Translations under genes and position numbers: made by a program | Origin: an uncultured Opitutia bacterium | GTDB taxonomy: Bacteria > Verrucomicrobiota > Verrucomicrobiia > Opitutales > Opitutaceae | NCBI GenBank assembly: GCA_903925425.1 | Contig: CAIYFD010000313.1 | Span: 1-38,406, forward strand | DNA length: 38,406 nucleotides | Direction: 5' to 3' | Part shown: one piece after another, positions 4,896 through 37,575 of the stretch | Layout: every line of letters begins with the position of its first letter | Numbering within the stretch: position 1 is the stretch's first letter | The notes under the pieces: generated by a model | The model's input: only the letters and a program-made list of their open reading frames with translations | Told to the model about the DNA's origin: nothing | Database searches by the model: none

Positions 4896-7559
4896 TCACA
4901 GCGCGGGCACGTGGGCGACGGTGTTGTGGATCTCGGCCTCGAGTGGCCGGCCGGCGGCGGTGTTGATGGTGAAGTTCACCTTCATCTGCATGACCGGCTT
5001 GATGCCCGGGATCTCGAGAAAGAGGGTGCGGCCGTCGGCCGAGAGCTGGACGGATTTCACGTCCACCGAATCGTGTTCCTGTTTGGTGGGGTCCTTGACC
5101 GAGTATTCCGCGGAGCCGTAGCTGGAGGTCCACTTGTAGTTCCACTGCTCCACCGCAAAATTCTGCAGGTCGGTGGCGGATTTCCGTTCGAGCGGAACGG
5201 TGAAGTCGATTTGGAGTCCGCCCGCCACCACATGAAGCTGCGCCGGCATCTCCACGTCCTTGCCGGTGTAGCGGACGCGCTGGAAGGCGCCGTCGCGCAC
5301 CGCGGTGGTCTGCCAGCCCTTCAGGCCGCAGAGGTAGAGCTGGCCGTCGACGGCGTTGAACCGTGCGCGCATCACGCCGGTGTCGACCGTGAGCGGGAAG
5401 CGGAACACGCCGCCCTGGTTCAGGCCCCCGGAGACCTCGCGCATGACGAGGAACAGGGAGGTCTTGCCATAGGATGTATAGATCAAGCCTCCGCCAAAGG
5501 GACCCCAGCGGTTGTTGTTGGGCACCCAGGCCTGGCCGCCGCCGGAGTTGTCGATGGTGCCGTGGGGCAGCCACATGATGGGATTACCATAGTTGTCGGG
5601 TGGCACCGCGCGCTGCGCAAGATCGACGACGCCGAGGAAGTCGCCTTGCTTGACGAGGTTAAGGCGGTCGGCGGGCGTCCAGGTGCCCTCGTTGTCGGCG
5701 AGGGTAAGCTCGTCATTCGGTCCGATGCCCATGCCGTTCGGCGCGCGCACGCCGGTGGCAAAGATGTCGAGCTTCGCGCCGTCGGCCGAAACCCGCAGGA
5801 CCGTGCCGGTGTGCGGGGTGATCACCTGCCAGCCGCGGCCGCCGGGAGCGACGGCGCCGCCCTTGGCGAAATAGAAATTGCCGGCGCGGTCCGTTTGGAG
5901 ATCGAGCGCGAACTCATGGAACGAAGGCGACACGATGACGTCGTGGTTGAAGCTCTCGTAGAAGTCCGCCTCGCCGTCGCCGTTCAGATCCTTCAGGCGC
6001 GTGATGCCGTCGCGGCCGAGCACGTACACCTCGTCCTTCACGATGCGGAGGCCGAGCGGCTGGAAGAGGCCGGTTGCGAAACGCTTCCACGTGAGGGATT
6101 CGAGTTTCTCGTCGATGCCCGAGACGATCCAGACATCGCCGCTCCACGTGGTGATGGCAGCGCGATGGCCGTCGGCGAAGAAGTCGAAGCCGCCGAAGCG
6201 CATCCAGGAGAAGTACGGGTTGTTGTCGGGCGCGGTGATGGTGTCCACGGTGTAGGCCCCGTCAGGCGTGGTGCTGGTGCCGAGCTGGCCCTTGGTGACG
6301 ATCTTCTCGTTCCAGCGCGAGGGACCGCCCTGTTGCGAAAGCGCGAGGTCGGGAGCGGGCGGGGCGGACTTGAGCCAGGCGTTGAAGGCGGTCTGCGTCT
6401 CCGGGACGATCTGGGTGACGGCGACCGTGAACGTGGCGCCGTCGGGCAGGACGGGCAGGCGGAGCGCCATGCGGCCGGCCTGGACATCGAACTGCATGCC
6501 CTCGACCGCGCCGATCAGGCCGGCGACGGTCCGGACCTCGGAGGCGGCGGGGATGCGGACCATGCCGATGGTCAGGCCGGCGTCCTTGGGCGTTTCCCCC
6601 ACGGGTTCCGTGGTGGGGCTCACGTCCGCGATGAGGAGCGACCGCTGCAGGGTGCTCGGCCCAACCTTGAACGTGCGGGTGAAAACCGGGGTGCCGTCGG
6701 CGAGCTTCGCCAGGCCCGGGGATTCCAGGACCTCGGTGTCGCCCACGGTGTAGGACACGACGACGCGATCGCCGTTGAGATAAAGGCCTCGGTATTTACC
6801 GGTGGCTGCGGGGAGAGGGCCGAACGGTTTTTCCCGGGGATCGGTGAAGGTGGGGCGCGCTGCGCCGGCGACCCAGCCCGGGACGGCGGCGGTGGCAAAA
6901 CTGAGGCGGCCGGCCGGCACGGGGTTGGGCCCGTGGACGCCGTTGAAGGCCACGCCGGTCAGGGTGAGAAAGCCATCGGTCCAGCCCGCGGACCAACGGA
7001 GGAGATCCGTGTCGAAGAGCATCGCGCCCTCTCCGGCGGCGCCGAGCTTGATGGCGATGCCCTTGTTGGTCGTGTTGCCCTGCGGCCAGCGCGCGACGAT
7101 GGTGGCGGACAGGAACGGGCCGTAGTCGATCGCCTGGGCCTTGCTGGAGCTGAGGAGGGTCGCGGCCGACATGCCCGTGATCGAGCCGGCCGGCGTGCGT
7201 TGCACCACGACCGCGACTTGGTCCGGGGCGAGCTTGTCGGGTGAGCGCTGCAACCGGGCAAAGGAATCGGCCCGGGCGAGGGCGAGCGCGCGTTCCGCGG
7301 TGGCGAGGGCCTCGGCTTTCGCGGTGATCGCCGCCGGATCACCCGGGATGAGGAGGGAGGCCTCGGTCAGCGCGGTGCGGGCGTTAACCACGGACTGCAA
7401 CGGGACCGCGACGTCCTGATCGAGCGCGTTGGTCAGGCCCAGCGTCTGTGCCGAGGTGACATTGGGGATGGGCGGGCGGGCGGCGGCTTGGGCGAGGACG
7501 GAATTCGCGCCAAGGCTGCACGAAACCACGGTAACGATGACGAAGGCAGGAATCTTCAT
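4896..7559 (-). CDS. Secreted PVC-type membrane-bound-dehydrogenase-domain / glucose-sorbosone-dehydrogenase-like beta-propeller protein
   Basis: An internal ATG at 7559 gives the signal peptide MKIPAFVIVTVVSCSLGANSVLAQA. The central region shows propeller-like repeats (DGHRAAITTWSGDVWIV, DLNGDGEADFYESF, GNFYFAKGG, RAPNGMGIGPNDELTLADNEGTW). The protein has no CxxCH of its own. Confidence 0.7.
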   Translation of the reverse strand: MKIPAFVIVTVVSCSLGANSVLAQAAARPPIPNVTSAQTLGLTNALDQDVAVPLQSVVNARTALTEASLLIPGDPAAITAKAEALATAERALALARADSFARLQRSPDKLAPDQVAVVVQRTPAGSITGMSAATLLSSSKAQAIDYGPFLSATIVARWPQGNTTNKGIAIKLGAAGEGAMLFDTDLLRWSAGWTDGFLTLTGVAFNGVHGPNPVPAGRLSFATAAVPGWVAGAARPTFTDPREKPFGPLPAATGKYRGLYLNGDRVVVSYTVGDTEVLESPGLAKLADGTPVFTRTFKVGPSTLQRSLLIADVSPTTEPVGETPKDAGLTIGMVRIPAASEVRTVAGLIGAVEGMQFDVQAGRMALRLPVLPDGATFTVAVTQIVPETQTAFNAWLKSAPPAPDLALSQQGGPSRWNEKIVTKGQLGTSTTPDGAYTVDTITAPDNNPYFSWMRFGGFDFFADGHRAAITTWSGDVWIVSGIDEKLESLTWKRFATGLFQPLGLRIVKDEVYVLGRDGITRLKDLNGDGEADFYESFNHDVIVSPSFHEFALDLQTDRAGNFYFAKGGAVAPGGRGWQVITPHTGTVLRVSADGAKLDIFATGVRAPNGMGIGPNDELTLADNEGTWTPADRLNLVKQGDFLGVVDLAQRAVPPDNYGNPIMWLPHGTIDNSGGGQAWVPNNNRWGPFGGGLIYTSYGKTSLFLVMREVSGGLNQGGVFRFPLTVDTGVMRARFNAVDGQLYLCGLKGWQTTAVRDGAFQRVRYTGKDVEMPAQLHVVAGGLQIDFTVPLERKSATDLQNFAVEQWNYKWTSSYGSAEYSVKDPTKQEHDSVDVKSVQLSADGRTLFLEIPGIKPVMQMKVNFTINTAAGRPLEAEIHNTVAHVPAL

Positions 7560-10783: not shown

Positions 10784-12136
10784 TCAGGGCCGGTGCAGCG
10801 TGATCACGCACTCAAGGTGGCGGGTCTGCGGGAAGAGATCGAACGGCTGCACTGCGGCGAGCGTGTAGCCGGCGGCGAGGAAGGCCTTGAGGTCGCGCAT
10901 CTGCGTGGCCGGGTCGCACGAGACGTAGACGACGGTGTGCGGGGCGAAGGCAAAGAGCTGGGTGAGGAAGGACTCGTCGCAGCCCTTGCGCGGCGGGTCG
11001 ATGATCACGGCGGTCTCGGCGGCGGGAAACGTCAGCCCGGCGAAGATCGCCGCGGCGTCACCCGCGCGGAATTCGGCGTTGGCGATGCCGTTGGCCGCGG
11101 CATTTTCCCTCGCGAAGCGGACGCTGCTCTCGCTGATCTCGATGCCGGTCACGCGCTCGAATGCCGGCGCGGACGACAGCGCGAAGAGCCCGCTGCCACA
11201 GTAGGCGTCGACGAGGAAACGGGCCGGGCCGGCCGAGGCCTGTACCCGCACATAGCCGGTGAAGGCCGGGAGGATGAAGGGGTTGTTCTGGAAAAAATCG
11301 CGGGCGAGAAAACGGAGCCGGAGCGCCGGTGACGGACTCTGGCTGGCGATCTCCTCGGTGATGATGGCATCGTAGTCGGTCGTGACGCCCTCGGCGGCAT
11401 GGCGGAGGAGCAGGGTGGCATCGCGCTTATAGAATCCCTCGGCGAGTCGCTGCCGGGTTTTGGCGCGCACCTCGGTCAGCTGCGCGTTGATCTCCGGGGT
11501 GGCGATCGGGCACTCCGGGACGTCGACCAGTTCGAAGCGGTTCCCGGCCCGAAGAAACCCGATGGGGGACTCTGGGGTAGTCGCGACCGCATCTGAGATC
11601 TGAGATTTGAGATTTGAAGTTCCCGCATTTTGCCGCGGCGCGGCAAAATGAGGCGTGAGCTTCGACCGGTAGCCGTACTCGCGCGGAGACGCGATGACCG
11701 GGTTCACCGGGAACTCGACGCCCGCCATGTATTTCAACAGTTCGCCGACCTGGCGCTGTTTCCAGAGCAATTGCTCCGCGTAGGCGAGATGCTGGTACTG
11801 GCAGCCACCGCAGCGCCCGAAAAGGCTGCACCGGGCGGCGACCCGCTGGGGCGAGGGGGTGAGCACCGCGATGAGATCGGCCTCGGAGAAATTCTTCTGG
11901 TTGCGGAAAATCCGCACCCGCACCCGTTCGCCGGGCAGGGTGAAAGGGACCATCACAACCCAGCCGCCAGCCGAGGCCGGAGGCTGGCTCGTGGTTTCAG
12001 ACTTCAGATCTGAAATTTGAGACTCCGGCAAGGCCACGCGGCCCAAGCCCGACCCCAGGTTGGTGAGCGTGCTGATCTCCAGCTCGATCTCCTGATGATA
12101 GGCGAACGGATGGTCGTTCAATTTGTTTTTTCCCAC
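10784..12136 (-). CDS. SAM-dependent RNA (uracil-5)-methyltransferase, RlmD/RumA/TrmA family, with TRAM domain and Fe-S cysteine cluster
   Basis: TRAM-like N-terminus (EIELEISTL..GSGLGR...VPFTLPGERVRVRI), a CGGCQYQH cluster, the SAM motif DAYCGSGLFAL, DPPRKG, and C-terminal VYVSCDP...LFPQT.H.E. The start is either GTG 12136 or TTG 12121. The 910-aa track ORF is a shadow extension. The gene contains two in-frame AT-rich heptamer cassettes. Confidence 0.8.
   Translation of the reverse strand: MGKNKLNDHPFAYHQEIELEISTLTNLGSGLGRVALPESQISDLKSETTSQPPASAGGWVVMVPFTLPGERVRVRIFRNQKNFSEADLIAVLTPSPQRVAARCSLFGRCGGCQYQHLAYAEQLLWKQRQVGELLKYMAGVEFPVNPVIASPREYGYRSKLTPHFAAPRQNAGTSNLKSQISDAVATTPESPIGFLRAGNRFELVDVPECPIATPEINAQLTEVRAKTRQRLAEGFYKRDATLLLRHAAEGVTTDYDAIITEEIASQSPSPALRLRFLARDFFQNNPFILPAFTGYVRVQASAGPARFLVDAYCGSGLFALSSAPAFERVTGIEISESSVRFARENAAANGIANAEFRAGDAAAIFAGLTFPAAETAVIIDPPRKGCDESFLTQLFAFAPHTVVYVSCDPATQMRDLKAFLAAGYTLAAVQPFDLFPQTRHLECVITLHRP
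11591..11621. repeat. AT-rich heptanucleotide tandem-repeat cassette A
   Basis: + strand units: atctgag atctgag atttgag atttgaa gtt. On the gene (minus) strand this reads TCAAATC TCAAATC TCAGATC TCAGAT and is translated as TSNLKSQISD inside the methyltransferase. The tract is about one-third G+C in a much more GC-rich background. Confidence 0.9.
11994..12024. repeat. AT-rich heptanucleotide tandem-repeat cassette B (dyad-symmetric)
   Basis: + strand units: gtttcag acttcag atctgaa atttgag act, containing the perfect palindrome ttcagatctgaa. Translated as ESQISDLKSET inside the TRAM domain of the same gene. Confidence 0.9.
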
Positions 12137-12209
12137 GCAACAGACGAAATACACGAAAGCTCCGGAAAAGAAGCGGTTTTCTTTCGTGTCTTTTCGGGGA
12201 TTTCGTGGG
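12132..12209. promoter_or_regulatory. Long imperfect inverted repeat in the divergent promoter region between the two RNA methyltransferase genes
   Basis: The left arm cccacgcaacagacgaaatacacgaaag (12132-12159) mirrors the right arm ctttcgtgtcttttcggggatttcgtggg (12181-12209). The inner 9 bp, acacgaaag/ctttcgtgt, are perfect. CGAAA/TTTCG motifs are repeated on each arm. Confidence 0.45.
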
Positions 12210-12220
12210 CAACGTTGGCT

Positions 12221-13021
12221 GTGCCCCCGGAAAAAATCACCAGCCTCCAGAACCCCCGGGTGAAGGAGTTGGTGCGCCTGCGCGACCGCCGGCCGCGCGA
12301 CGAGGCCGGCCTGTTCCTCGTCGAGGGCTACCGCGAGGTCCGGCGTGCGCTGGAGAAAAAGATCCCGCTGCGGGAGGTGTATTTCGCCCCCGAATGGTTC
12401 CTCGGCGAAAACGAGCGCCCGCTGCTGGAGCAGGCCGCGGCGGCCGGGGCGACGCTCTGCGAGCTTTCCAAGGAGGCCTTCGCCAAGGTCGCCTACCGGG
12501 AGCGTCCCGACGGCCTTCTGGCAGTCGCCCCGCAATGGCACCGGAAACTCGAGGACCTCGTGCTGCCCAAGACGCCCTTTCTGCTCGTCGTCGAGGCGAT
12601 CGAGAAGCCGGGCAACCTCGGCACGATCCTGCGCAGTGCCGACGCCGCCGGCTGCGATGCCGTGATTGTCTGCGATCCGGTCACCGACCTCTTTAATCCC
12701 AACGTGGTCCGGGCTTCCACCGGCGTGCTTTTTTCCGTGCCCTGCGTCGTGGCCGAGAGCACCGCGGTGCACGCCTGGCTCCGCGGAAAGAAGATCCGCA
12801 CGGTGGCGACGACCCCGGCGGCGGAAAAAATCTACTCCGATACCGACCTGCGCGGCCCGCTCGCGGTGGTCATGGGCAGCGAGCAATTCGGACTCAGCAA
12901 GTTCTGGCTGGAGAACGCGGATCTCCCCGTCCGCATCCCGATGGCCGGCCAGGCCGATTCGCTCAATGTCGCGATGGCCACGATCATCACGCTCTTCGAG
13001 GCGGTACGGCAGCGGGGCTGA
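12221..13021 (+). CDS. TrmH/SpoU family RNA 2'-O-methyltransferase
   Basis: Has NPRVKELVRLRD, the SpoU motifs EKPGNLGTILRSADAAG, VMGSEQFGLS and IPM.G.ADSLNVAMA. The start is in-frame GTG 12221 or TTG 12215. The upstream part of the 334-aa track ORF overlaps the divergent gene. Confidence 0.8.
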   Translation: MPPEKITSLQNPRVKELVRLRDRRPRDEAGLFLVEGYREVRRALEKKIPLREVYFAPEWFLGENERPLLEQAAAAGATLCELSKEAFAKVAYRERPDGLLAVAPQWHRKLEDLVLPKTPFLLVVEAIEKPGNLGTILRSADAAGCDAVIVCDPVTDLFNPNVVRASTGVLFSVPCVVAESTAVHAWLRGKKIRTVATTPAAEKIYSDTDLRGPLAVVMGSEQFGLSKFWLENADLPVRIPMAGQADSLNVAMATIITLFEAVRQRG

Positions 13022-13605: not shown

Positions 13606-14609
13606 GCCGGCGGAAGTCCGGGTTGGCGGTGCCAATGGATCAGCTCCGCCGTGCCGGCGGCCATCGAAACGTGAGGCGCGTAGCCCAGATCGCGCCGCGC
13701 CGCGGCGATATCGAACCAGTGGTCCTTGGCGAGCTCGGCCGCGATGAAGCGGGTCATCGGCGGTTCGCCGCGCACCGGCAGCACCCGCCAGGCGGCCTCG
13801 CACAACGCCCCGAAGACACTCGCGGCGCCGAGGGAGATGGTTTTCGTCACGGGCGGAACACCGAGTCCACGGAGGAGTGCGTTGATCCATTCCCAGAGCA
13901 GCACCGGCTCGCCGTTGGTGATGAAGTAGGCTTGGCCGCCGGCCACGGGCCGGGGGCCGGAAAGCGCGCGTTCGGCGAGAAGGTGGGCGGCGACGGCGTT
14001 GTCGATGTGGACCATGTCGACGCGGTTCTGACCGTTGCCGACGATGCGCAGTCGGCCGGCCTTGGCCCGGGCGAGGAGGCGTGGCACGAGATGGGGATCG
14101 CCCACGCCCCAGATCAAATGGGGGCGCAGGGCCACGGTGCGAAGCTCCGGCCCGTGGGCGGCGAGGATCTCGCGCTCGGCGATGGCCTTTGTGAGCGGGT
14201 ACGGACTCGGGCAGTCGCTCGTGAGCGGGAGCGATTCGTTGGCGCCGGCGAGATCGTGGCCGTTGTAGACCACGCTCGGTGTGCTGGTGTAGACGAGCCG
14301 GGCCACGCCGTGCATCCGGCAGCCGGCGAGAATCGCGCGGGTGCCGAGCACGTTGGTCCGGAAGAAATCATCGTAGTCGCCCCAGACGCCGACCTTGGCC
14401 GCGGTGTGGAACACCGTCTCGATCCCGGCGCAGGCGGCCTCCACGGCTGTCGCGTCGCCGAGCGAGGCCTGAATAAAGCGAACACCCCTGGCCTCGAGAT
14501 CGGGTGCGGGGGTGCGGCCGAGCACCGCGACCTGTCGGCCCTCCGCGAGCAGCCGCTCCACCAGTTTCCGGCCGAGGAAACCAGTGCCGCCGGTGACAAG
14601 CACGCTCAT
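13602..14609 (-). CDS. NAD(P)-dependent 3-beta-hydroxysteroid dehydrogenase/epimerase family reductase (OleD-like)
   Basis: 335 aa from ATG 14609. Rossmann motif VTGGTGFLG, then YTSTPSV, YPLTKA (YxxxK) and RP..IWG.GD..LVPRL. ATGA overlaps occur at both ends. Confidence 0.75.
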   Translation of the reverse strand: MSVLVTGGTGFLGRKLVERLLAEGRQVAVLGRTPAPDLEARGVRFIQASLGDATAVEAACAGIETVFHTAAKVGVWGDYDDFFRTNVLGTRAILAGCRMHGVARLVYTSTPSVVYNGHDLAGANESLPLTSDCPSPYPLTKAIAEREILAAHGPELRTVALRPHLIWGVGDPHLVPRLLARAKAGRLRIVGNGQNRVDMVHIDNAVAAHLLAERALSGPRPVAGGQAYFITNGEPVLLWEWINALLRGLGVPPVTKTISLGAASVFGALCEAAWRVLPVRGEPPMTRFIAAELAKDHWFDIAAARRDLGYAPHVSMAAGTAELIHWHRQPGLPPA

Positions 14610-16345
14610 GACGCCGCGTCCTCCGAGAGCGGTTTCGCCGTCGCGGCCCATTTGGCTAGGGTGAGCCGGTGAATCTTGGCGTTGTGGCGGGTGTCCACGG
14701 GAAAAAGCGGATGCACGAAGAACTGACGGATGCCCGCCGTCTGGGGCCGGGATTCGGCCGCTTTTTGCAGCAGGGCGAGGAGCATGACTCGGTCGGTGGT
14801 GAGCGATGATTCCTCCACCACCAGCGCCGGGGTCATGCGGCCCGGAGCACCCAGCCCGATCAGCGCGACGCGCAGGCCGGCGAAAGTGCTGCGAAACACC
14901 TGTTCGCACGGGTCGGTGAAAAGGGTCCCGTCAGCCGTGATCACGCGCTCGGCCTTGCGGCCGCAAAACCAGAGCCGGCCTTCGGGATCGAGCAGGCCGC
15001 AGTCGCCCATGCGGTGCCAGACCTCGGCGCGGGGCGTCGAGGAGGCGGAAGGCGGGAGGTGGGAGGCGGGAGGAGTGGATCTGGCGTCGAAGATTTTCGC
15101 CGCTGCCGTGGCCTCGGGCAGGGCATCGTACTCGCGGGTGACCACCGGCCCACGGACGATGATCTCACCGATCTCGTCGGGCGAAAGCGTCCGGGCCTCG
15201 GTCAGGCGCGCGAGGGGCTCGTCGGAGATCGCGATGATCCGCACCTCGATCCCCGGCAGGGGGCGCCCGACGCAGGTGCCCTGCGGTTGGGCGAGCAGCG
15301 GCAGCGCCTCGGCGGCGGAGATGCTGGCGACGGGCAGCGCCTCGGTGGCGCCGTAAGGGCTGTGCATCTGGCCGGCGGGAAGCCACGCGGTTGAGCTTTG
15401 CCAGAGCGCGGCGGGGACAGGAGCGCCGGCGCAGAGGACCCGGCGGAGTGAGGGCAGGGTGATGCCTTGGTCGCGGCAGTGGGTGCCGATCTTTGTCCAC
15501 AGGGTCGGCGAGCCGAAGGAGTTGGTGACTTTTTCCTGCTGGATGGCCTGCGCGATCTTGGCGGGGTCCACCGTGGCGGGGCGGCTGGGGTCGATCTCCG
15601 GCACGATGGTGGTCATGCCCAGCGCGGGATTGAAGAGGGCGAAGATCGGCAGCATCGGCAGGTCGATCTCGCCGGGCTGGATCCCGTAGGTTTCACGAAT
15701 CAACTGCACCTGCGCCTCGAACATGCCGTGTTCGTAGCAGACCCCCTTGGGTGCGCCGGTGGAGCCACTCGTGAACAGCACGGCGGCGAGGTCCGCGGCC
15801 GTGTTGCTCGCGATTTCAAATTTCAAATTTGAGATTTGAGATTGGGCGGTGAGGCGGGCCGTGAGGGAGCCGCTGACGGGGACGGTGATCTCCACGGAAC
15901 GGAAGGAGCCGCGGAAGAGATGTCGCACGAGGCGGGCCATCGGGATCCCGACGAGGGCGCGGGGGCGGGAGCGGGCGACGCAGGCGAGGAAACTTTTCAG
16001 GCCCATGCCGGGGTCGATGATGATCGGCACCGCGCCCAGCTGGAAGAGGCCGAAGGTGGCCGCGATCAACGGGAGTCCCGGGCGGACCATCACGAGCGTG
16101 CGATCGCCGCGGCGCACGCCGTGCGCCTGCAGCCGCGCGGTCCAGGCGTCGGCCTCGGCGGCGAGTTCGCGGAAACTGAGGCTCAGGTAGTCGATCGCGC
16201 CGGCGGCGGTCCTCCCACGCGGAATCTTGAGCGCGGGCGTGTCCGGCTGGCTCGCCGCCATGAGCCGGAGGTGTCGCGCGATGTTGGCGTCAGCCGGGGT
16301 AGGCACGTCGGGATGGCGGGGGTCCGTGGCGCCCGGCCGGCTCAA
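14606..16345 (-). CDS. AMP-dependent synthetase/ligase (fatty-acid CoA ligase family, OleC-like)
   Basis: 579 aa. Adenylate-forming motif LFTSGSTGAPKG, plus YGATE and a C-terminal region typical of the ANL superfamily. The start is TTG 16345, overlapping the rnd stop as TTGA, or GTG 16306. The gene contains an in-frame heptamer cassette just upstream of the P-loop motif. Confidence 0.8.
   Translation of the reverse strand: MSRPGATDPRHPDVPTPADANIARHLRLMAASQPDTPALKIPRGRTAAGAIDYLSLSFRELAAEADAWTARLQAHGVRRGDRTLVMVRPGLPLIAATFGLFQLGAVPIIIDPGMGLKSFLACVARSRPRALVGIPMARLVRHLFRGSFRSVEITVPVSGSLTARLTAQSQISNLKFEIASNTAADLAAVLFTSGSTGAPKGVCYEHGMFEAQVQLIRETYGIQPGEIDLPMLPIFALFNPALGMTTIVPEIDPSRPATVDPAKIAQAIQQEKVTNSFGSPTLWTKIGTHCRDQGITLPSLRRVLCAGAPVPAALWQSSTAWLPAGQMHSPYGATEALPVASISAAEALPLLAQPQGTCVGRPLPGIEVRIIAISDEPLARLTEARTLSPDEIGEIIVRGPVVTREYDALPEATAAAKIFDARSTPPASHLPPSASSTPRAEVWHRMGDCGLLDPEGRLWFCGRKAERVITADGTLFTDPCEQVFRSTFAGLRVALIGLGAPGRMTPALVVEESSLTTDRVMLLALLQKAAESRPQTAGIRQFFVHPLFPVDTRHNAKIHRLTLAKWAATAKPLSEDAAS
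15812..15843. repeat. AT-rich heptanucleotide tandem-repeat cassette C (dyad-symmetric)
   Basis: + strand units: gatttca aatttca aatttga gatttga gatt. Translated on the minus strand as QSQISNLKFEIAS. G+C is about 22% by direct count (7 of 32 nt). Confidence 0.9.
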
Positions 16346-17538
16346 GTCTGGAGCGAAGGCGATGCGCGCAGGAGGTCCGCCTGCCAGCGCAGCAGGTTGG
16401 CGTCGAGCTGGTCGGGGTCGCGGGCGATTTGGGCCAACTGGGCGCGGTTGGCGATGAGGGTGGCCTCGATGCCGAGCTTGGTGGCGATGGCGTCGCGGTC
16501 GGCCTTGATGCGGTCGAGCCGTGCCAGCTCGGTGTTGTTGAGCGGATTGAAGCGGGTGTCGCGCGCGGGGCGCCGCGGCAGGGTGGCGGGATCCTTGTCG
16601 AAGCCGGCGCGGACGGCGGCGGCGAGCGAGGGGAAGATGCGGTCGTGCCGCCGGCCGAGCTGGATCGGCTGGAGGATGGCCTCAGCGGTGGCGTTCTCCT
16701 CCCCGGAGTCGTAGGCGACCTGGAGAAGAAACTCATTCGAGCAGACCTTGAAGGGCGGCACGTCGAGGCGCTGGGCTTGGGACTCGCGCCAATGCCAGAT
16801 GGCATGGAGCACGGTGAGGCTGACGCCGCGCAGACGCTCGGACTTGCCGATGCGCCAGTCGTGTTCCGTGGCCGGGGCGAACCCGGCGGTGCCGGCCTCG
16901 ATCTGCGCCTCGCATTGCTGCTTCAGCCAGCCGTCGCGGCCCTTGTTTTTGAGCTCGCGCATCAGGATGTCGCGCAGGGCCGGGAGGTGCCAGACGTCGA
17001 GCGCGGCGTAATGGAGAAGCTTGGGGGTGATGGGGCGCTTGGACCAGTTGGCCTTCTGGCCGGACTTGTCGAGGGAGACGCCGAAATGCTCCTCGAGCAG
17101 AGCGGCCAGGCCGAAGCGGGACCGGCCGAGCAGCTGGGCGGCGAGCATGGTGTCGAAGACGCTGTGCGCGCGGAAACCGCAGAGGTCGTGGAGCAGGCGC
17201 AGGTCGAAGTCGCTGCCGTGCATCACGAGGTGCTTGCGGGCGAGGATCGGCCAGAGCGGCTTGAGGTCCATGCCCGGGGCGAGCACGTCGATCAGGAAAA
17301 CGCGCCCTTCGACCAGGAACTGCAGGAGGCAGACCCGGTTGCGGTAGTGGTACATGTTGTCCGCCTCGGTATCGAGGGAGACCTCATCGACCTGCCCGAG
17401 TGCGGCGAGGAAGGGCGCGAGGGCGTCGGGGCTGTCCACCATCTCGAAGGAGACGGGGCGGGCGGCTGCTTTGGGTCCGGGGGCGGCGTTGGCGCCAAAC
17501 AGTCGGCGGACTGAGCCGGGGATAAACCGGGAAATCAT
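16342..17538 (-). CDS. rnd: Ribonuclease D (3'-5' exonuclease plus HRDC domain)
   Basis: 398 aa with an ATG start. DEDD exonuclease motifs (LDTEADNMYHY, HGSDFDLRLL, YAALDVWHL) and a C-terminal HRDC-like region. Confidence 0.85.
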   Translation of the reverse strand: MISRFIPGSVRRLFGANAAPGPKAAARPVSFEMVDSPDALAPFLAALGQVDEVSLDTEADNMYHYRNRVCLLQFLVEGRVFLIDVLAPGMDLKPLWPILARKHLVMHGSDFDLRLLHDLCGFRAHSVFDTMLAAQLLGRSRFGLAALLEEHFGVSLDKSGQKANWSKRPITPKLLHYAALDVWHLPALRDILMRELKNKGRDGWLKQQCEAQIEAGTAGFAPATEHDWRIGKSERLRGVSLTVLHAIWHWRESQAQRLDVPPFKVCSNEFLLQVAYDSGEENATAEAILQPIQLGRRHDRIFPSLAAAVRAGFDKDPATLPRRPARDTRFNPLNNTELARLDRIKADRDAIATKLGIEATLIANRAQLAQIARDPDQLDANLLRWQADLLRASPSLQT

Positions 17539-34350: not shown

Positions 34351-37300
34351 CTAAGCCTTCAACTGCCGCTCGCGGAGCCAGGCGAAGATCACCGGGGTCA
34401 CGATTAGGATGTGGACGAGCGAGGAGAGCATGCCGCCGACGACGGGGGCGGCGAGAGGGCGCATGACTTCCACGCCGGTGCGGGTGCTCCAGAAGATCGG
34501 GAGCAGGCCGGCGACGGCGGTGGCGACGGTCATGACCTTCGGGCGGAGGCGGAGGCGGGCGCCTTCGCGGATCGCGAGGAGCAGCTCCTCGCGATCCAGT
34601 TGAAGGTTGGAAGTTGAAAGTTGAAGGTCGGGTGAAAGCGCGGCGCGCTTGGCAGCGAGACGCCGTTTTACGGCGTCTTCCAAATACACGACCATCACCA
34701 CGCCGGTCTGGATGGCGGTGCCAAAGAGCGCGATGTAGCCGACCCAGACGGCCACGCTGAAGTTGTAGCCGAGCAAACCCTGCAGGATCACGCCGCCGGT
34801 CAGGGCGAAAGGCACGGCGAGAATCACGTGCGCGGCCTCGGCGGCGGAGTGGAACGTGAAGCAGAGGATCAGGAAGATGATGACCAGCACCGCCGGCATG
34901 ATCAGCTGCAGCGTGGCGCGGGCGCGGAGCTGGTTCTCGTACTGGCCGGAGTATTCGAGCGTCATGCCGGGATCGAGTTTGACCTCCTTGGTGACGGCGG
35001 CGCGGACGTCCTCCACGAAACCGCCGAGGTCGCGTCCGGTCACGTTGGCCTGCACGTAGGCGCGGAGCCGGCCGTTCTCGCTCGCGATCTCGTTCGGCCC
35101 GAGCACGCGCTTGATCGTGGCGACCTGCTGCAGGGGAACGTAGGCGCCCGACGGCAGCGGGACCGGGATGGCGCCGAGGCGGTCGATGTCCTCGCGGTCC
35201 GACTTTTCGAGGCGGACCTGCACCGGCCAGCGCTCACGGCCCTGGATCGTGGTCGTGGCGGTGCGCCCGCCGAGGCCGGTCTCGGCGATGGCAAGCACAT
35301 CGGCCGCGCTGAGTCCGAAGCGGGTGAGGGCGGCGCGGTCGACGGAGATCTCGAGATAGGGCTTGCCCTGTACGCGGGAGGGCGAGACGCCCGCGGCGCC
35401 GGGGATCTTGCTGACGACCGCCTCGATCTCGAAGGCCTTGCGCTGAATGGCATCGAGGTCGTCGCCAAAGATCTTCAGTCCGAGCTGGGCGCGGATGCCG
35501 GTGGAGAGCATCAGTACGCGGTTCTCGATCGGCTGGAGGAAACCCGCGGCATAGCCGGGCACCTGGGTGAGTTTTTCCGAGAGGTCGGTAATCAGCATCT
35601 CCTGGGTCATTCCGGGCCGCCACGCGGAGGCCGGCTTGAGCGTGATGGTGGTCTCGATCATCTCTGCCGGCGCAGGATCGGTGGCGGTGTCGAACCGGCC
35701 GAGTTTGCCGGCGACGGACGCGACCTCGGGGGTGGCGGCGATGACCTTGTCCTGCCAGGCCATGATGCGCTTGATCTCGGTAAGCGAGGTGCTCGGCACC
35801 AGCACCGGCATGAAGAGCAGGCTGCCCTCCTGCAGGGTCGGCATGAATTCGGAGCCGAACCCGCCGACGAGGCGTCCGGCGGAAGGCGGGAGGCGGGAGG
35901 CGATGGAGCGCGGCAGCCCGAAGGCGAGCAGGGCGCAGGCGGCGAGCAGCGTGGCGGCGCAGCCGAGGACCGTTTTGCGGTGCTCCAGCGCCCAGTTCAG
36001 GACCGGGTCGTAGATCGCGAGGAGGAAACGCATCAGCCAGTTGCGGTCTTCGGAGTGGAACGGGCCGCGCACGAGATAAGTGCAGAGCACAGGCACGAGC
36101 GTCACGGCGAGCACCGTGGCACCGAGCATCGCGAAGCTCTTGGTCCAGGCCAGCGGATGGAAGAGCTTTCCCTCCTGCCCGGTCAGCGTGAACACCGGCA
36201 CGAAGGCCAGAATGATGATCGCCATCGCGAGGAAGATGGGCCGGCCGACCTGCTGTGAGGCCTCGAGCGTGACCTGCCATGTTTCGGCGGACGTGAGGCG
36301 TGAGCCCTTGGCCTTCTCGGCGAGCTCGCAGTGCCGGATGACATTCTCGGTCATCACGATCGCGGCGTCCACCAGCACGCCAATGGCAATGGCGATGCCG
36401 GTCAGCGACATGATGTGCGACTGGATGCCGAATTCCTTCATCAGGATGAACGCGATCAGGATCGAGGCGGGCAGCGGCAGCGTGACGATCAGGATGCTGC
36501 GGAAGTGAAAGAGAAACAGGACGTGCATCAGCGTCACGAGGATGACGGCTTCCCAAAGCGTGTGCTTGAGCGTGTCGATCGCGCGGCCGATCAGGTCGCT
36601 GCGGTCGTAGAACGGCTCGATCGTCACCCCGGGCGGCAGGCCCGGCGCGATCTGCGCGATCTTGGCCTTCACGTCCTGGATCACCTGCCAGGCGTTCTCG
36701 CCCGACCGCATCACGACCGTGCCACCGACCACCTCGTGCCCGTCGACATCGAGCGCACCGCGGCGGTAGTCGCCGCCGATCTGCACCGTGGCCACGTCGG
36801 TGAGCCGAATCGGCACGCCCTGGCGGACGTCGAGCGCGATGCTTTCGAGATCCGCGGCCGACTTGATCAGGCCGACGCCACGGACGATGAACTCCATGCC
36901 GTTTTCCTCAAGGGTGCGGCCGCCGACGTTGAGATTGTTGCGGGCGATCGTCTCCAGCACGCGGTCGAGCGTGAGCCCGAGCGCGCGGAGTTTGACCGAC
37001 GAGACCTCGACCTGCCACTGGCGCACGAACCCGCCGATGCCGGCGACCTCGGCCACGCCCGGGACGGACGCGAGTTGGAAGCGGATGAAATAATCCTGCA
37101 GCGCGCGGAGGGATCCGAGGTCCTGTTTCCCGGAGGTGTCCTTGAGATGGTACTGATAAACCCAGCCCAGCCCGGTGGCGTCGGGCCCGAGGCGCGGGGT
37201 GACCCCGGCCGGGAGGAGGTTACCGAGGTAGTTCAGCCGCTCGAGGACGCGGGTGCGGGCGAAGTAATTGTCGATCTTGTCGTCGAAGATCACCGTGAGC

Positions 37301-37575
37301 AGCGAGAACCCGAACATCGAGTTGGCGCGCACGCTGCGGACACCGGCGAGGCCCTGAAGGTTGACCGAGAGCGGGTAGGTGATCTGGTCCTCGATCTCCT
37401 GCGGGCTGCGGCCCTCCCAGTCGGCGAAGACGATGACCTGGTTCTCGCTCAGGTCCGGGATCGCGTCGATGGGGACGCGGCGGATGGCGAAGAGGCCCCA
37501 GCCGAAAAGGAGCAGCGTGGCCCCGAGGACCAGCAGGCGGTTTTCGAGCGACCAGCGGATGAGCCGGTTGATCAT
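34351..37575 (-). CDS. cusA: CusA/CzcA family heavy-metal efflux RND permease
   Basis: 1074 aa. N-terminal MINRLIRWSLENRLLVL, 12-TM RND architecture and a C-terminal RLRPKVMT...LP motif. The ATG overlaps the cusB stop (ATGA). A variant heptamer cassette sits in a C-terminal loop. Confidence 0.9.
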   Translation of the reverse strand: MINRLIRWSLENRLLVLGATLLLFGWGLFAIRRVPIDAIPDLSENQVIVFADWEGRSPQEIEDQITYPLSVNLQGLAGVRSVRANSMFGFSLLTVIFDDKIDNYFARTRVLERLNYLGNLLPAGVTPRLGPDATGLGWVYQYHLKDTSGKQDLGSLRALQDYFIRFQLASVPGVAEVAGIGGFVRQWQVEVSSVKLRALGLTLDRVLETIARNNLNVGGRTLEENGMEFIVRGVGLIKSAADLESIALDVRQGVPIRLTDVATVQIGGDYRRGALDVDGHEVVGGTVVMRSGENAWQVIQDVKAKIAQIAPGLPPGVTIEPFYDRSDLIGRAIDTLKHTLWEAVILVTLMHVLFLFHFRSILIVTLPLPASILIAFILMKEFGIQSHIMSLTGIAIAIGVLVDAAIVMTENVIRHCELAEKAKGSRLTSAETWQVTLEASQQVGRPIFLAMAIIILAFVPVFTLTGQEGKLFHPLAWTKSFAMLGATVLAVTLVPVLCTYLVRGPFHSEDRNWLMRFLLAIYDPVLNWALEHRKTVLGCAATLLAACALLAFGLPRSIASRLPPSAGRLVGGFGSEFMPTLQEGSLLFMPVLVPSTSLTEIKRIMAWQDKVIAATPEVASVAGKLGRFDTATDPAPAEMIETTITLKPASAWRPGMTQEMLITDLSEKLTQVPGYAAGFLQPIENRVLMLSTGIRAQLGLKIFGDDLDAIQRKAFEIEAVVSKIPGAAGVSPSRVQGKPYLEISVDRAALTRFGLSAADVLAIAETGLGGRTATTTIQGRERWPVQVRLEKSDREDIDRLGAIPVPLPSGAYVPLQQVATIKRVLGPNEIASENGRLRAYVQANVTGRDLGGFVEDVRAAVTKEVKLDPGMTLEYSGQYENQLRARATLQLIMPAVLVIIFLILCFTFHSAAEAAHVILAVPFALTGGVILQGLLGYNFSVAVWVGYIALFGTAIQTGVVMVVYLEDAVKRRLAAKRAALSPDLQLSTSNLQLDREELLLAIREGARLRLRPKVMTVATAVAGLLPIFWSTRTGVEVMRPLAAPVVGGMLSSLVHILIVTPVIFAWLRERQLKA
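34598..34628. repeat. Heptanucleotide tandem-repeat cassette D (GTTGAAR variant)
   Basis: + strand units: agttgaa ggttgga agttgaa agttgaa ggt. Translated on the minus strand as DLQLSTSNLQLD within cusA. Confidence 0.85.

Follow-up and report, generated by a model that had tools for sequence, protein, structure and literature searches.

Four-heptamer repeat cassettes in housekeeping genes of Opitutaceae, often bordered by inverted copies of the adjoining coding sequence

We analyzed a stretch of 38,406 nucleotides from an uncultured Opitutia bacterium (contig CAIYFD010000313.1; hereafter, the window), in which a predicted rRNA methyltransferase gene carries two short AT-rich tracts of tandem 7-nt repeats, tracts A and B. 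The gene lies on the reverse strand (10784 to 12121) as a 445-aa open reading frame (ORF) with its stop at 10784 and a TTG start at 12121; in public gene calls the start is an ATG at 12154, 11 codons upstream of the TTG. Its product combines TRAM and uracil-C5 RNA methyltransferase domains (Pfam PF01938 and PF05958) with an Fe-S cysteine cluster, matches the RumA structure 1uwv with E = 6.5e-41, and is predicted to be an RlmD/RlmCD-like rRNA methyltransferase. A public protein (P0001/P0130) is 100% identical to it, and the nearest public methyltransferase proteins belong to Opitutaceae (Lacunisphaera, Oleiharenicola, Opitutus). Tract A (11591 to 11620, reverse strand; TTCAAATCTCAAATCTCAGATCTCAGAT on the gene strand) consists of four direct heptamers, (TCAAATC)2(TCAGATC)2, and encodes TSNLKSQISD (residues 168-177) in the loop between TPHF and PIGF. 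Tract B (11993 to 12025, reverse strand; GTCTCAAATTTCAGATCTGAAGTCTGAAAC on the gene strand) is a four-unit dyad, TCTCAAA TTTCAGA TCTGAAG TCTGAAA, and encodes ESQISDLKSET (residues 33-43) in the hairpin loop of the TRAM domain. The G+C content is 0.67 for the window and 0.33-0.36 for tracts A and B. An original prediction had described both tracts as 7-nt-periodic, about one-third G+C and read through in frame, and the sequence together with Tandem Repeats Finder (TRF) confirmed this description.

The prediction spoke of two copies. Tracts A and B are indeed present, but the count for the window was incomplete, since a third tract of the same family and three arrays of other families accompany them. 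Tract C (15812 to 15843, reverse strand) is a 32-nt module, AATCTCAAATCTCAAATTTGAAATTTGAAATC, read in frame as QSQISNLKFEI within an AMP-binding enzyme gene (14606-16345). The family of A, B and C (units TCTSAAA / TCAAATC) therefore counts three copies in two genes within 38 kb, and the two-unit pattern TCARATYTCARATY, with at most one mismatch, has 10 overlapping matches in three tracts, versus 0.05 expected from shuffles. Tract D (34598 to 34625, reverse strand) comprises four heptamers of another AT-rich family (TTCAACT), encodes LQLSTSNLQL in frame, and lies in the gene of a CusA-like RND pump (34351-37575), in a loop about 10 residues longer than that of CusA. The remaining two arrays are GC-rich, belong to a CCTCCCG family and are also on the reverse strand and in frame: one (15041 to 15073; PPASHLPPSAS) in the same AMP-binding gene as tract C, the other (35878 to 35902; ASRLPPSA) in the RND pump gene. 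The G+C content of the tracts overall is 0.22-0.36. All six arrays of the window are intragenic and in frame, and they are paired in three genes (clustering P = 0.004). TRF assigned period 7 and 3.9-4.7 copies to the arrays at 11591, 15812 and 34598, and the units of tract B were read directly. No additional arrays were found in the approximately 5 kb beyond the window, continued through the RND pump gene.

Two arguments about reading frame had been made from the sequence: that a 7-nt repeat yields one cyclic peptide in whichever sense frame it is read, and that stop codons on the opposite strand restrict it to a single orientation inside genes. Both hold for tract A, in which all three sense frames are open and all three antisense frames are closed. 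Tracts B and C have a single open sense frame each, which is the frame in use, again as predicted for B. These two dyad tracts are 83-87% self-complementary, while tract A is purely direct.

Each of A-D, the AT-rich tracts of the window, abuts an inverted repeat. That of tract A (CCGCATTTTGCCGCG / CGCGGCAAAATGAGG; 11623 to 11653) has arms of 15 nt that are 93% complementary, and its inner part (11626-11650) is the perfect hairpin that had been proposed, with 12+12 paired nt. One arm consists of the conserved P-H-F-A-A codons; the arm on the heptamer side is an inverted copy and encodes PRQNA. For site B, the proposed GCCAGCC/GGCTGGC pair is present, but the inverted repeat (11954 to 11993) is better described as two 19-nt arms, 11954-11972 / 11975-11993, that are 79% complementary, the native arm being the G-G-W-V codons. 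The inverted repeat of tract C (15769 to 15813) has 20-nt arms, 80% complementary, with the AAVLFT codons of the AMP-binding motif as its native arm, and tract D is touched by a perfect 14-nt pair, GGATCGCGAGGAGC / GCTCCTCGCGATCC (34569 to 34597; 100%). Orthologues show that the far arm is native and conserved for A-C (PHFAA, GGWV and AAVLFT); for D, where the comparison is with the corresponding CusA positions only, the alignment of LLAIR suggests a native far arm. In each of the four, the arm next to the heptamers is the inverted copy. The inverted-repeat scores of A, B, C and D are 12, 6, 7 and 14. A score of at least 7 occurs at 2.6% of random window positions and one of at least 12 in 0.07% of the background, and a score of 14 was reached by none of 1500 random positions. 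Folded as single-stranded DNA, the four hairpin regions have z-scores of -2.5 to -5.7 (D, -5.7). The suspicion that tract and neighboring hairpin form a composite thus proved stronger than first voiced, with four of four AT-rich tracts in the window and, as described below, the same pairing across Opitutaceae.

We compared the methyltransferase with 120 orthologous proteins and with the DNA of 84 orthologous loci; L-numbers such as L122 and L151 denote loci throughout. Sites A and B are hypervariable in both length and content across the 120 orthologues. An empty site A reads TPHF-NPPRDxxxP-PIGF and an empty site B reads LGRVALPGETEAKWVVM, the LPGETEAKW state being found in many orthologues. 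Empty states predominate in basal lineages and recur within the crown group, and alignment with E. coli RumA places a 17-residue insertion at site A. Distant orthologues have empty loops or other heptamer families, and not the same peptide encoded by nonrepetitive DNA. Going by this alignment, in which the outgroups have empty loops, both tracts were inserted into variable loops in particular lineages, as had been supposed. L140 falls within a group of relatives whose sites are empty; here 48 nt stand in place of 18 native nt, a replacement that fits a repair junction.

Once in place, the tracts are stable. Four species-level relatives (80-89% protein identity) carry the same heptamer family at the same sites, always with four units, and differ by point changes that include C/G flips in the middle of a unit. 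Neither tract A nor tract B varies among 13 distinct strain sequences (97-100% identity) drawn from NCBI, ENA, JGI and Logan assemblies. These observations bear on the suggestion that the tracts are contingency loci, in which the frame would shift, and the methyltransferase be toggled, whenever a 7-nt unit is gained or lost. As in phase-variable loci, a unit whose length is not a multiple of three lies within a reading frame, and heptamer repeats are reported to drive phase variation in Haemophilus (PMC8262952, PMC12721329). However, the absence of any unit-number change in the 13 assembled strain sequences leaves a phase switch unsupported, and the relatives at 80-89% identity likewise keep four units. 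Moreover, arrays of about four units are short for efficient slippage, the host proteins are housekeeping enzymes, and in all three of these unrelated genes the tracts are found mid-gene. We regard an on/off switch as extremely improbable.

To place the window arrays in context, we ran TRF on 0.97 Mb of Opitutaceae DNA. Period 7 is strongly overrepresented, with 147 arrays compared with 6 of period 5, 47 of period 8 and 54 of period 10. Period-7 arrays have a median length of 30 nt (interquartile range 26-32) and a mode of four copies, and approximately 107 of 109 lie within long open frames of high GC3 (G+C at third codon positions). Arrays of one locus share a unit in 8.7% of cases, versus 1.1% between loci. 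Larger identities also link distinct sites. The site-B module of L122 differs from tract C of the window at 2 of 32 nt, although the two lie in different genes, and L144 has two identical imperfect 32-nt modules (AAATCGTAAATCGTAAATCTGAAATCATAAAT) in one gene, 735 nt apart, both in frame and with unrelated flanks. In direct orientation, the similarity of units to their flanks equals that of permuted pairings, and with no excess to explain we rejected the idea that the arrays are stutters of the local flank. In inverted orientation, the similarity is 12.7% versus 3.4%, at least partly owing to composite dyads.

Some loci carry larger composites. The same composite of about 97 nt occupies both methyltransferase loops of L151 (6925-7068 and 7441-7520), and matching composites occur in L184 (3203-3325 and 3675-3767), all in frame. 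GTTCCGA-type heptamers, four at one end and four inverted ones at the other, enclose a 36-nt spacer (TTGTCCGACAAACCGTCGCCGATG...), a layout that looks like a miniature inverted-repeat transposable element (MITE) with heptamer arrays as terminal inverted repeats. L122 (84% identity) has two further composites, (GTGACAN)3 - spacer - (GTCACNC)4, in intergenic or gene-junction positions (5456-5544 and 7395-7476); they are missing at the syntenic window positions (~16345-16390 and ~14600-14650). Judged from these sequence comparisons, the modules are imported into genes and not grown by local slippage.

This conclusion has to be weighed against the view that the arrays are ordinary microsatellites, each expanded in place by slippage of a local 7-nt seed, the similarity among units reflecting convergence on stop-free repeats with tolerated peptides. 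Heptamers are the commonest class of long simple sequence repeats in many bacteria and slippage has been proposed for them (PMC4679880, PMC4692102, citing Mrazek 2007), and Mrazek and colleagues considered period 7 to be favored by the polymerase footprint. Our data also contain units that resemble their surroundings: at site A of L174, the units nearest the flank resemble the native neighboring heptamer (CGCCCAT versus CGCCGAT), and site-A units of L144, L137 and L159 contain the reverse complement of the adjacent CCGCA. Such flank-like units in some GC-rich arrays hint that some families begin as local stutters. In-place slippage fits poorly, however, with AT-rich units amid GC-rich flanks, with the lack of a direct-orientation excess, with identical imperfect 32-nt modules at two sites and modules identical at 30 of 32 nt in different genes, and with families shared within genomes. 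It also predicts neither the fixed size of about four units, since in-frame slippage should favor multiples of three, nor the lack of copy-number variation in strains and species. We therefore consider it quite improbable as a general explanation.

The same loops are used by several heptamer families. In other Opitutaceae, four-unit arrays of ATCGAAA (IENRKSK), CTCAGCC (SQPSALS), CTCAGGT (SQVSGLS) and AAGTGAC (KEVTSDK) fill loops A and B, as do four-unit arrays of TTCCGAG, CCTTCTC and GCGGATT. The site in the AMP-binding gene directly before DLAAVLFTSGSTG is likewise reused by different families, and where the window has its GC-rich array at 15041 to 15073, the orthologue L144 has a copy of an AT-rich module. 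In some lineages, loops A and B hold palindromic elements instead of heptamer arrays. At site A of L126, L131/L166 and L132/L136 these are GC-rich, translated in frame, and take the forms GGAGGGCC...GGCCCTCC (peptide GGPSSRWAAADREVGPP), TGTAGCCGG...CCGGCTACA and GRANPPDEPR...GGLALP. As their peptides turn up in many orthologues, these hot spots are also used by small repeat families of other kinds.

We note a third hot spot in the methyltransferase gene, directly 5' of LRLRFLARDFF (window counterpart at ~11300-11345). Here, L174 (2798-2829) and L178 (4185-4209) have heptamer arrays with an inverted repeat mirroring the LRLRF codons, and the closest relatives (L121:4744-4763; L122:10777-10812) have GC-rich CCCTCCG arrays. 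The SQSPSPA segment of the window at this position may be a decayed array copy.

The pairing of arrays with inverted repeats extends across Opitutaceae. Where orthologues allow a judgment, the far arms again consist of conserved codons (PHF, GGWV, DLAAVLFT and LRLRF); arms measure 8-18 nt with loops of 0-7 nt, and the repeats lie 0-3 nt from the array. Of 104 nonredundant arrays, 17.3% had an inverted-repeat score of at least 8, whereas of 3000 random positions 0.7% did (Fisher p = 2e-17); for a score of at least 10 the shares were 10.6% and 0.1%. Where lineages differ synonymously, the two arms change together. Site A has a perfect repeat both in the window (CATTTTGCCGC / GCGGCAAAATG) and in L122 (CATTTTTCCGC / GCGGAAAAATG), each in its own synonymous spelling, and inverted repeat A of L122 shows a compensatory change; the repeat at this site is also perfect in L135 (12 nt) and L151 (13 nt). 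At site B, perfect repeats span 14 nt in L124 and 10 nt in each of L136 and L150. Such inverted repeats are missing from empty orthologous sites, and we saw no site with the repeat but without adjoining module-like sequence.

We considered whether these inverted repeats are targets and not products. In that case, the modules would be the ends or minimal forms of a non-autonomous, MITE-like transposon, and a putative enzyme would recognize the feet of single-stranded hairpins. Class C group II introns, and insertion sequence (IS) elements that target REP or attC sites, are precedents for insertion directed by hairpins. The in-frame composites of L151 and L184, with arrays as terminal inverted repeats, fit such a transposon, as do the L122 composites missing at syntenic window sites, the position of modules 0-3 nt from a hairpin foot, and the use of the same hairpin-marked sites by different families. 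On the other hand, pre-existing hairpin targets are unsupported, since empty orthologous sites lack the inverted repeat. No direct target-site duplication was recognized at the L174, L140 or L151 junctions, which show an inverted flank copy instead; no transposase candidate was noticed among the loci read; and the insertion at L140 replaces native sequence. As to terminal inverted repeats, the L151, L184 and L122 composites end in inverted heptamer arrays and dyad tracts B and C are largely self-complementary, while tract A has direct units only. We judge a MITE-like transposon to be unlikely, if less so than slippage.

The heptamer itself is not confined to this family. A scan for TCARATY arrays with one genome per species gave at least 120 loci with 3-12 units in Acidobacteriota, Planctomycetota, Verrucomicrobiota, cyanobacteria, Bacteroidota and others, so the repeat family is not Opitutaceae-specific. 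Among the matches listed from other phyla, 47-53% of tracts lie in a spanning frame of at least 150-200 aa, versus 83-88% of random positions. Hairpin adjacency showed no enrichment for the 126 same-family tracts of other phyla among those matches, which indicates that the coupling belongs to the lineage and is no inherent property of the repeat. Both this coupling and the location inside genes are thus features of the Opitutaceae lineage. Separately, a recurrent dispersed repeat, CCGCGCTTCGTATTTCAAATCTCAAATCTCAAATACGAAATTTCAAAT, in which three heptamers lie inside a CGTATTT/AAATACG stem, was found in L049, L088 (two copies, on both strands) and L117.

A selected function would be a further way to account for the cassettes, either as a linker or short amphipathic helix in the protein or as an RNA or DNA site (regulator-binding heptamers, a terminator or a promoter). 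The cassettes have been kept for long in the clade of the window, and post-transcriptional regulators have been suggested to act at intergenic heptamer arrays (PMC4679880). Yet the same loops are empty in many orthologues and hold unrelated peptides in others, and the inserts fall in coil, within the low-confidence part of an AlphaFold2 model of the methyltransferase (N-terminal half, mean predicted local distance difference test score 59), which is too poor to prove surface exposure. The amphipathic heptad with a/d-like spacing that the prediction had read into the peptide has no visible structural role, being about 10 residues of coil in this model. Promoter and terminator consensus scans at the tracts gave no matches, and we dropped the regulatory readings on that account; an Rfam scan of the whole window gave no match. 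A selected function seems very improbable.

Three observations concern neighboring sequence. The AT-rich divergent intergenic region between the methyltransferase gene and a SpoU-type methyltransferase gene (window 12122-12230) holds an inverted repeat, CACGAAAG...CTTTCGTG, and TTTCGTGGG-like words, and a similar word lies 5' of the AMP-binding gene in L122. A candidate leader motif, TTCGTGGG..AAAA, near start codons gave weak matches only in a pattern search and was dropped. About 4 kb past the right end of the window, in the same species, a tandem repeat of period 60/120 nt (L205:1727-1994; 2.2-4.3 copies) lies inside a 343-aa ORF without a Pfam match.

The statement that no described element family has these properties was too strong, as dispersed heptamer repeats and the in-frame selfish repeats of Rickettsia are precedents. 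STRR heptamer repeats were reportedly described in cyanobacteria by Mazel in 1990. TAACTGA repeats occur in Beggiatoaceae, cyanobacteria and Bacteroidetes; one of their strands has stops in all frames, hence a single intragenic orientation (a few 'reverse' copies are intragenic) and a cyclic heptapeptide, LSVISYQ (PMC4679880). GGGAATC / GGGGAYT repeats occur in Xanthomonas and Nostoc, with a preference for four units reported for Xanthomonas (PMC4692102). Like these and other long simple sequence repeats, the Opitutaceae arrays are scattered short tandem 7-nt arrays with family-specific units and a patchy distribution across phyla, and the one-strand stops, single intragenic orientation and cyclic heptapeptide are common to both. 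The known families, however, are mainly intergenic, underrepresented in coding sequence and variable in copy number between relatives, whereas the Opitutaceae arrays lie nearly all in frame in conserved genes and are fixed at about four units. The inverted flank copy is not described in those papers.

Rickettsia palindromic elements (Ogata et al. 2000, 2002) are in-frame selfish repeats in housekeeping genes (PMC10969869). As with those elements, several repeat families have entered conserved but unrelated genes in frame, at positions that vary from one orthologue to another, and add surface segments compatible with function. They differ in being palindromes of about 100-150 bp with a conserved peptide, compared with heptamer arrays of 28-32 nt here; no inverted target duplication is described for them; and their host is an AT-rich obligate intracellular bacterium. 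The small dispersed repeats of Nostoc reportedly treated by Elhai et al. in 2008 are said to measure 21-27 nt, to lie inside genes and heptamer arrays, and to have had their mobility inferred from orthologues. They share with the present cassettes a mobile appearance and a size too small to encode anything, but differ in sequence and are not tandem heptamers. We know of no report that couples them to an inverted flank copy. REP/BIME-RAYT systems are a poorer match: these are extragenic palindromes of 20-40 nt with a conserved GTAG/CGTC tetranucleotide, whereas the tracts are intragenic and their arms are site-specific coding sequence.

The junctions find a parallel in snap-back templated insertions, which arise in synthesis-dependent or polymerase-theta-type microhomology-mediated end joining (PMC5728401, PMC2943611). 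Both have an inverted copy of adjoining sequence with a loop of a few nt; the filler is copied from another place, often nearby, and native bases can be replaced. Known snap-back insertions, however, are sporadic scars with unique filler, whereas here a four-heptamer module recurs. A bacterial group-II-intron-like reverse transcriptase, G2L4, reportedly performs snap-back synthesis in end joining (bioRxiv 10.1101/2022.03.14.484287), which makes fold-back enzymology plausible in bacteria.

The Opitutaceae genes described here contain stable, in-frame, dispersed cassettes in permissive loops, bordered by an inverted copy of the flank. We think it reasonably probable that tracts A, B and C are copies of a miniature dispersed repeat cassette, a four-heptamer module of about 28-32 nt that is coupled to a hairpin and carried as a stable, near-neutral passenger. 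The best reading of its kinship is with STRR, TAACTGA and selfish DNA of the Rickettsia-palindromic-element type. A module would persist only in a permissive surface loop, with its stop-free strand as the sense strand and with a total insertion length that preserves the frame; it would then be transcribed and translated passively as a short hydrophilic linker. Its place would be the foot of an inverted repeat that pairs native flanking coding sequence with an inverted copy of that sequence, and module and inverted flank copy would have arisen together in one event. A likely route would be fold-back (snap-back) or template-switching synthesis during repair or replication, in which the fold-back step would duplicate a module already present at another place, frequently close by within the same gene. 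Installation is thus probably by a hairpin- or fold-back-associated process, and a dedicated enzyme that inserts modules at hairpin feet is a serious alternative agent. There is little to support local slippage, phase variation, or a regulatory or structural role.

Several points weigh against the passenger cassette and its proposed route. The junction chemistry and the formation of the inverted repeat at the moment of insertion are presumed from present-day loci: in an all-against-all blastn comparison of 85 loci, near-identical pairs had no informative indels, and no fresh presence/absence polymorphism was seen among them. An inverted repeat scoring at least 7 is detectable beside only about one-quarter of Opitutaceae arrays, and no mobilizing enzyme was noticed among the loci read. 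About half of the tracts listed from other phyla lie outside long ORFs, and those tracts show no hairpin enrichment. The GC-rich site-A arrays of L174 and L144 are partly flank-related, and local stuttering may contribute to some families. Arrays in the census were assigned to genes by long open frames and GC3 and not by a gene finder, and passive translation of the modules is presumed from intact conserved ORFs.

Within the literature searched, three features look new: the mostly intragenic module fixed at four units, loops that different families occupy again and again, and an inverted copy of the flank. We tentatively raise a bolder possibility, which we hold with much less confidence than the passenger cassette itself, namely that Opitutaceae, and perhaps other bacteria of the PVC (Planctomycetes-Verrucomicrobia-Chlamydiae) group, have an undescribed DNA-writing process that installs a module of four heptamers (about 30 nt) and, along with it, the adjacent sequence in inverted copy. 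Its agent could be a snap-back or template-switching polymerase or reverse transcriptase, or an enzyme targeting hairpin feet. If module and inverted flank copy do form one insertion event, they would be the footprint of a mechanism undescribed in bacteria that moves or writes DNA too small to encode anything. Such a process would represent a new class of ultra-small mobile element or a recurrent repair scar.

For the study of these bacteria, the cassettes have practical consequences. They inflate and fragment alignments and gene calls in metagenome-assembled genomes of Verrucomicrobiota, and they explain low-complexity segments of the SQISNLK, IENRKSK and SQPSALS type in Verrucomicrobiota proteins. 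They also give a handle, in the form of defined hot-spot loops, defined junctions and a lineage rich in such cassettes, on the old question of why heptamers are the commonest long simple repeats of bacteria and how they are dispersed. A DNA-writing process of the kind proposed, if real, would continually remodel the surface loops of housekeeping proteins, with hot-spot loops reused across lineages, and would provide a steady supply of new peptide segments for conserved proteins.

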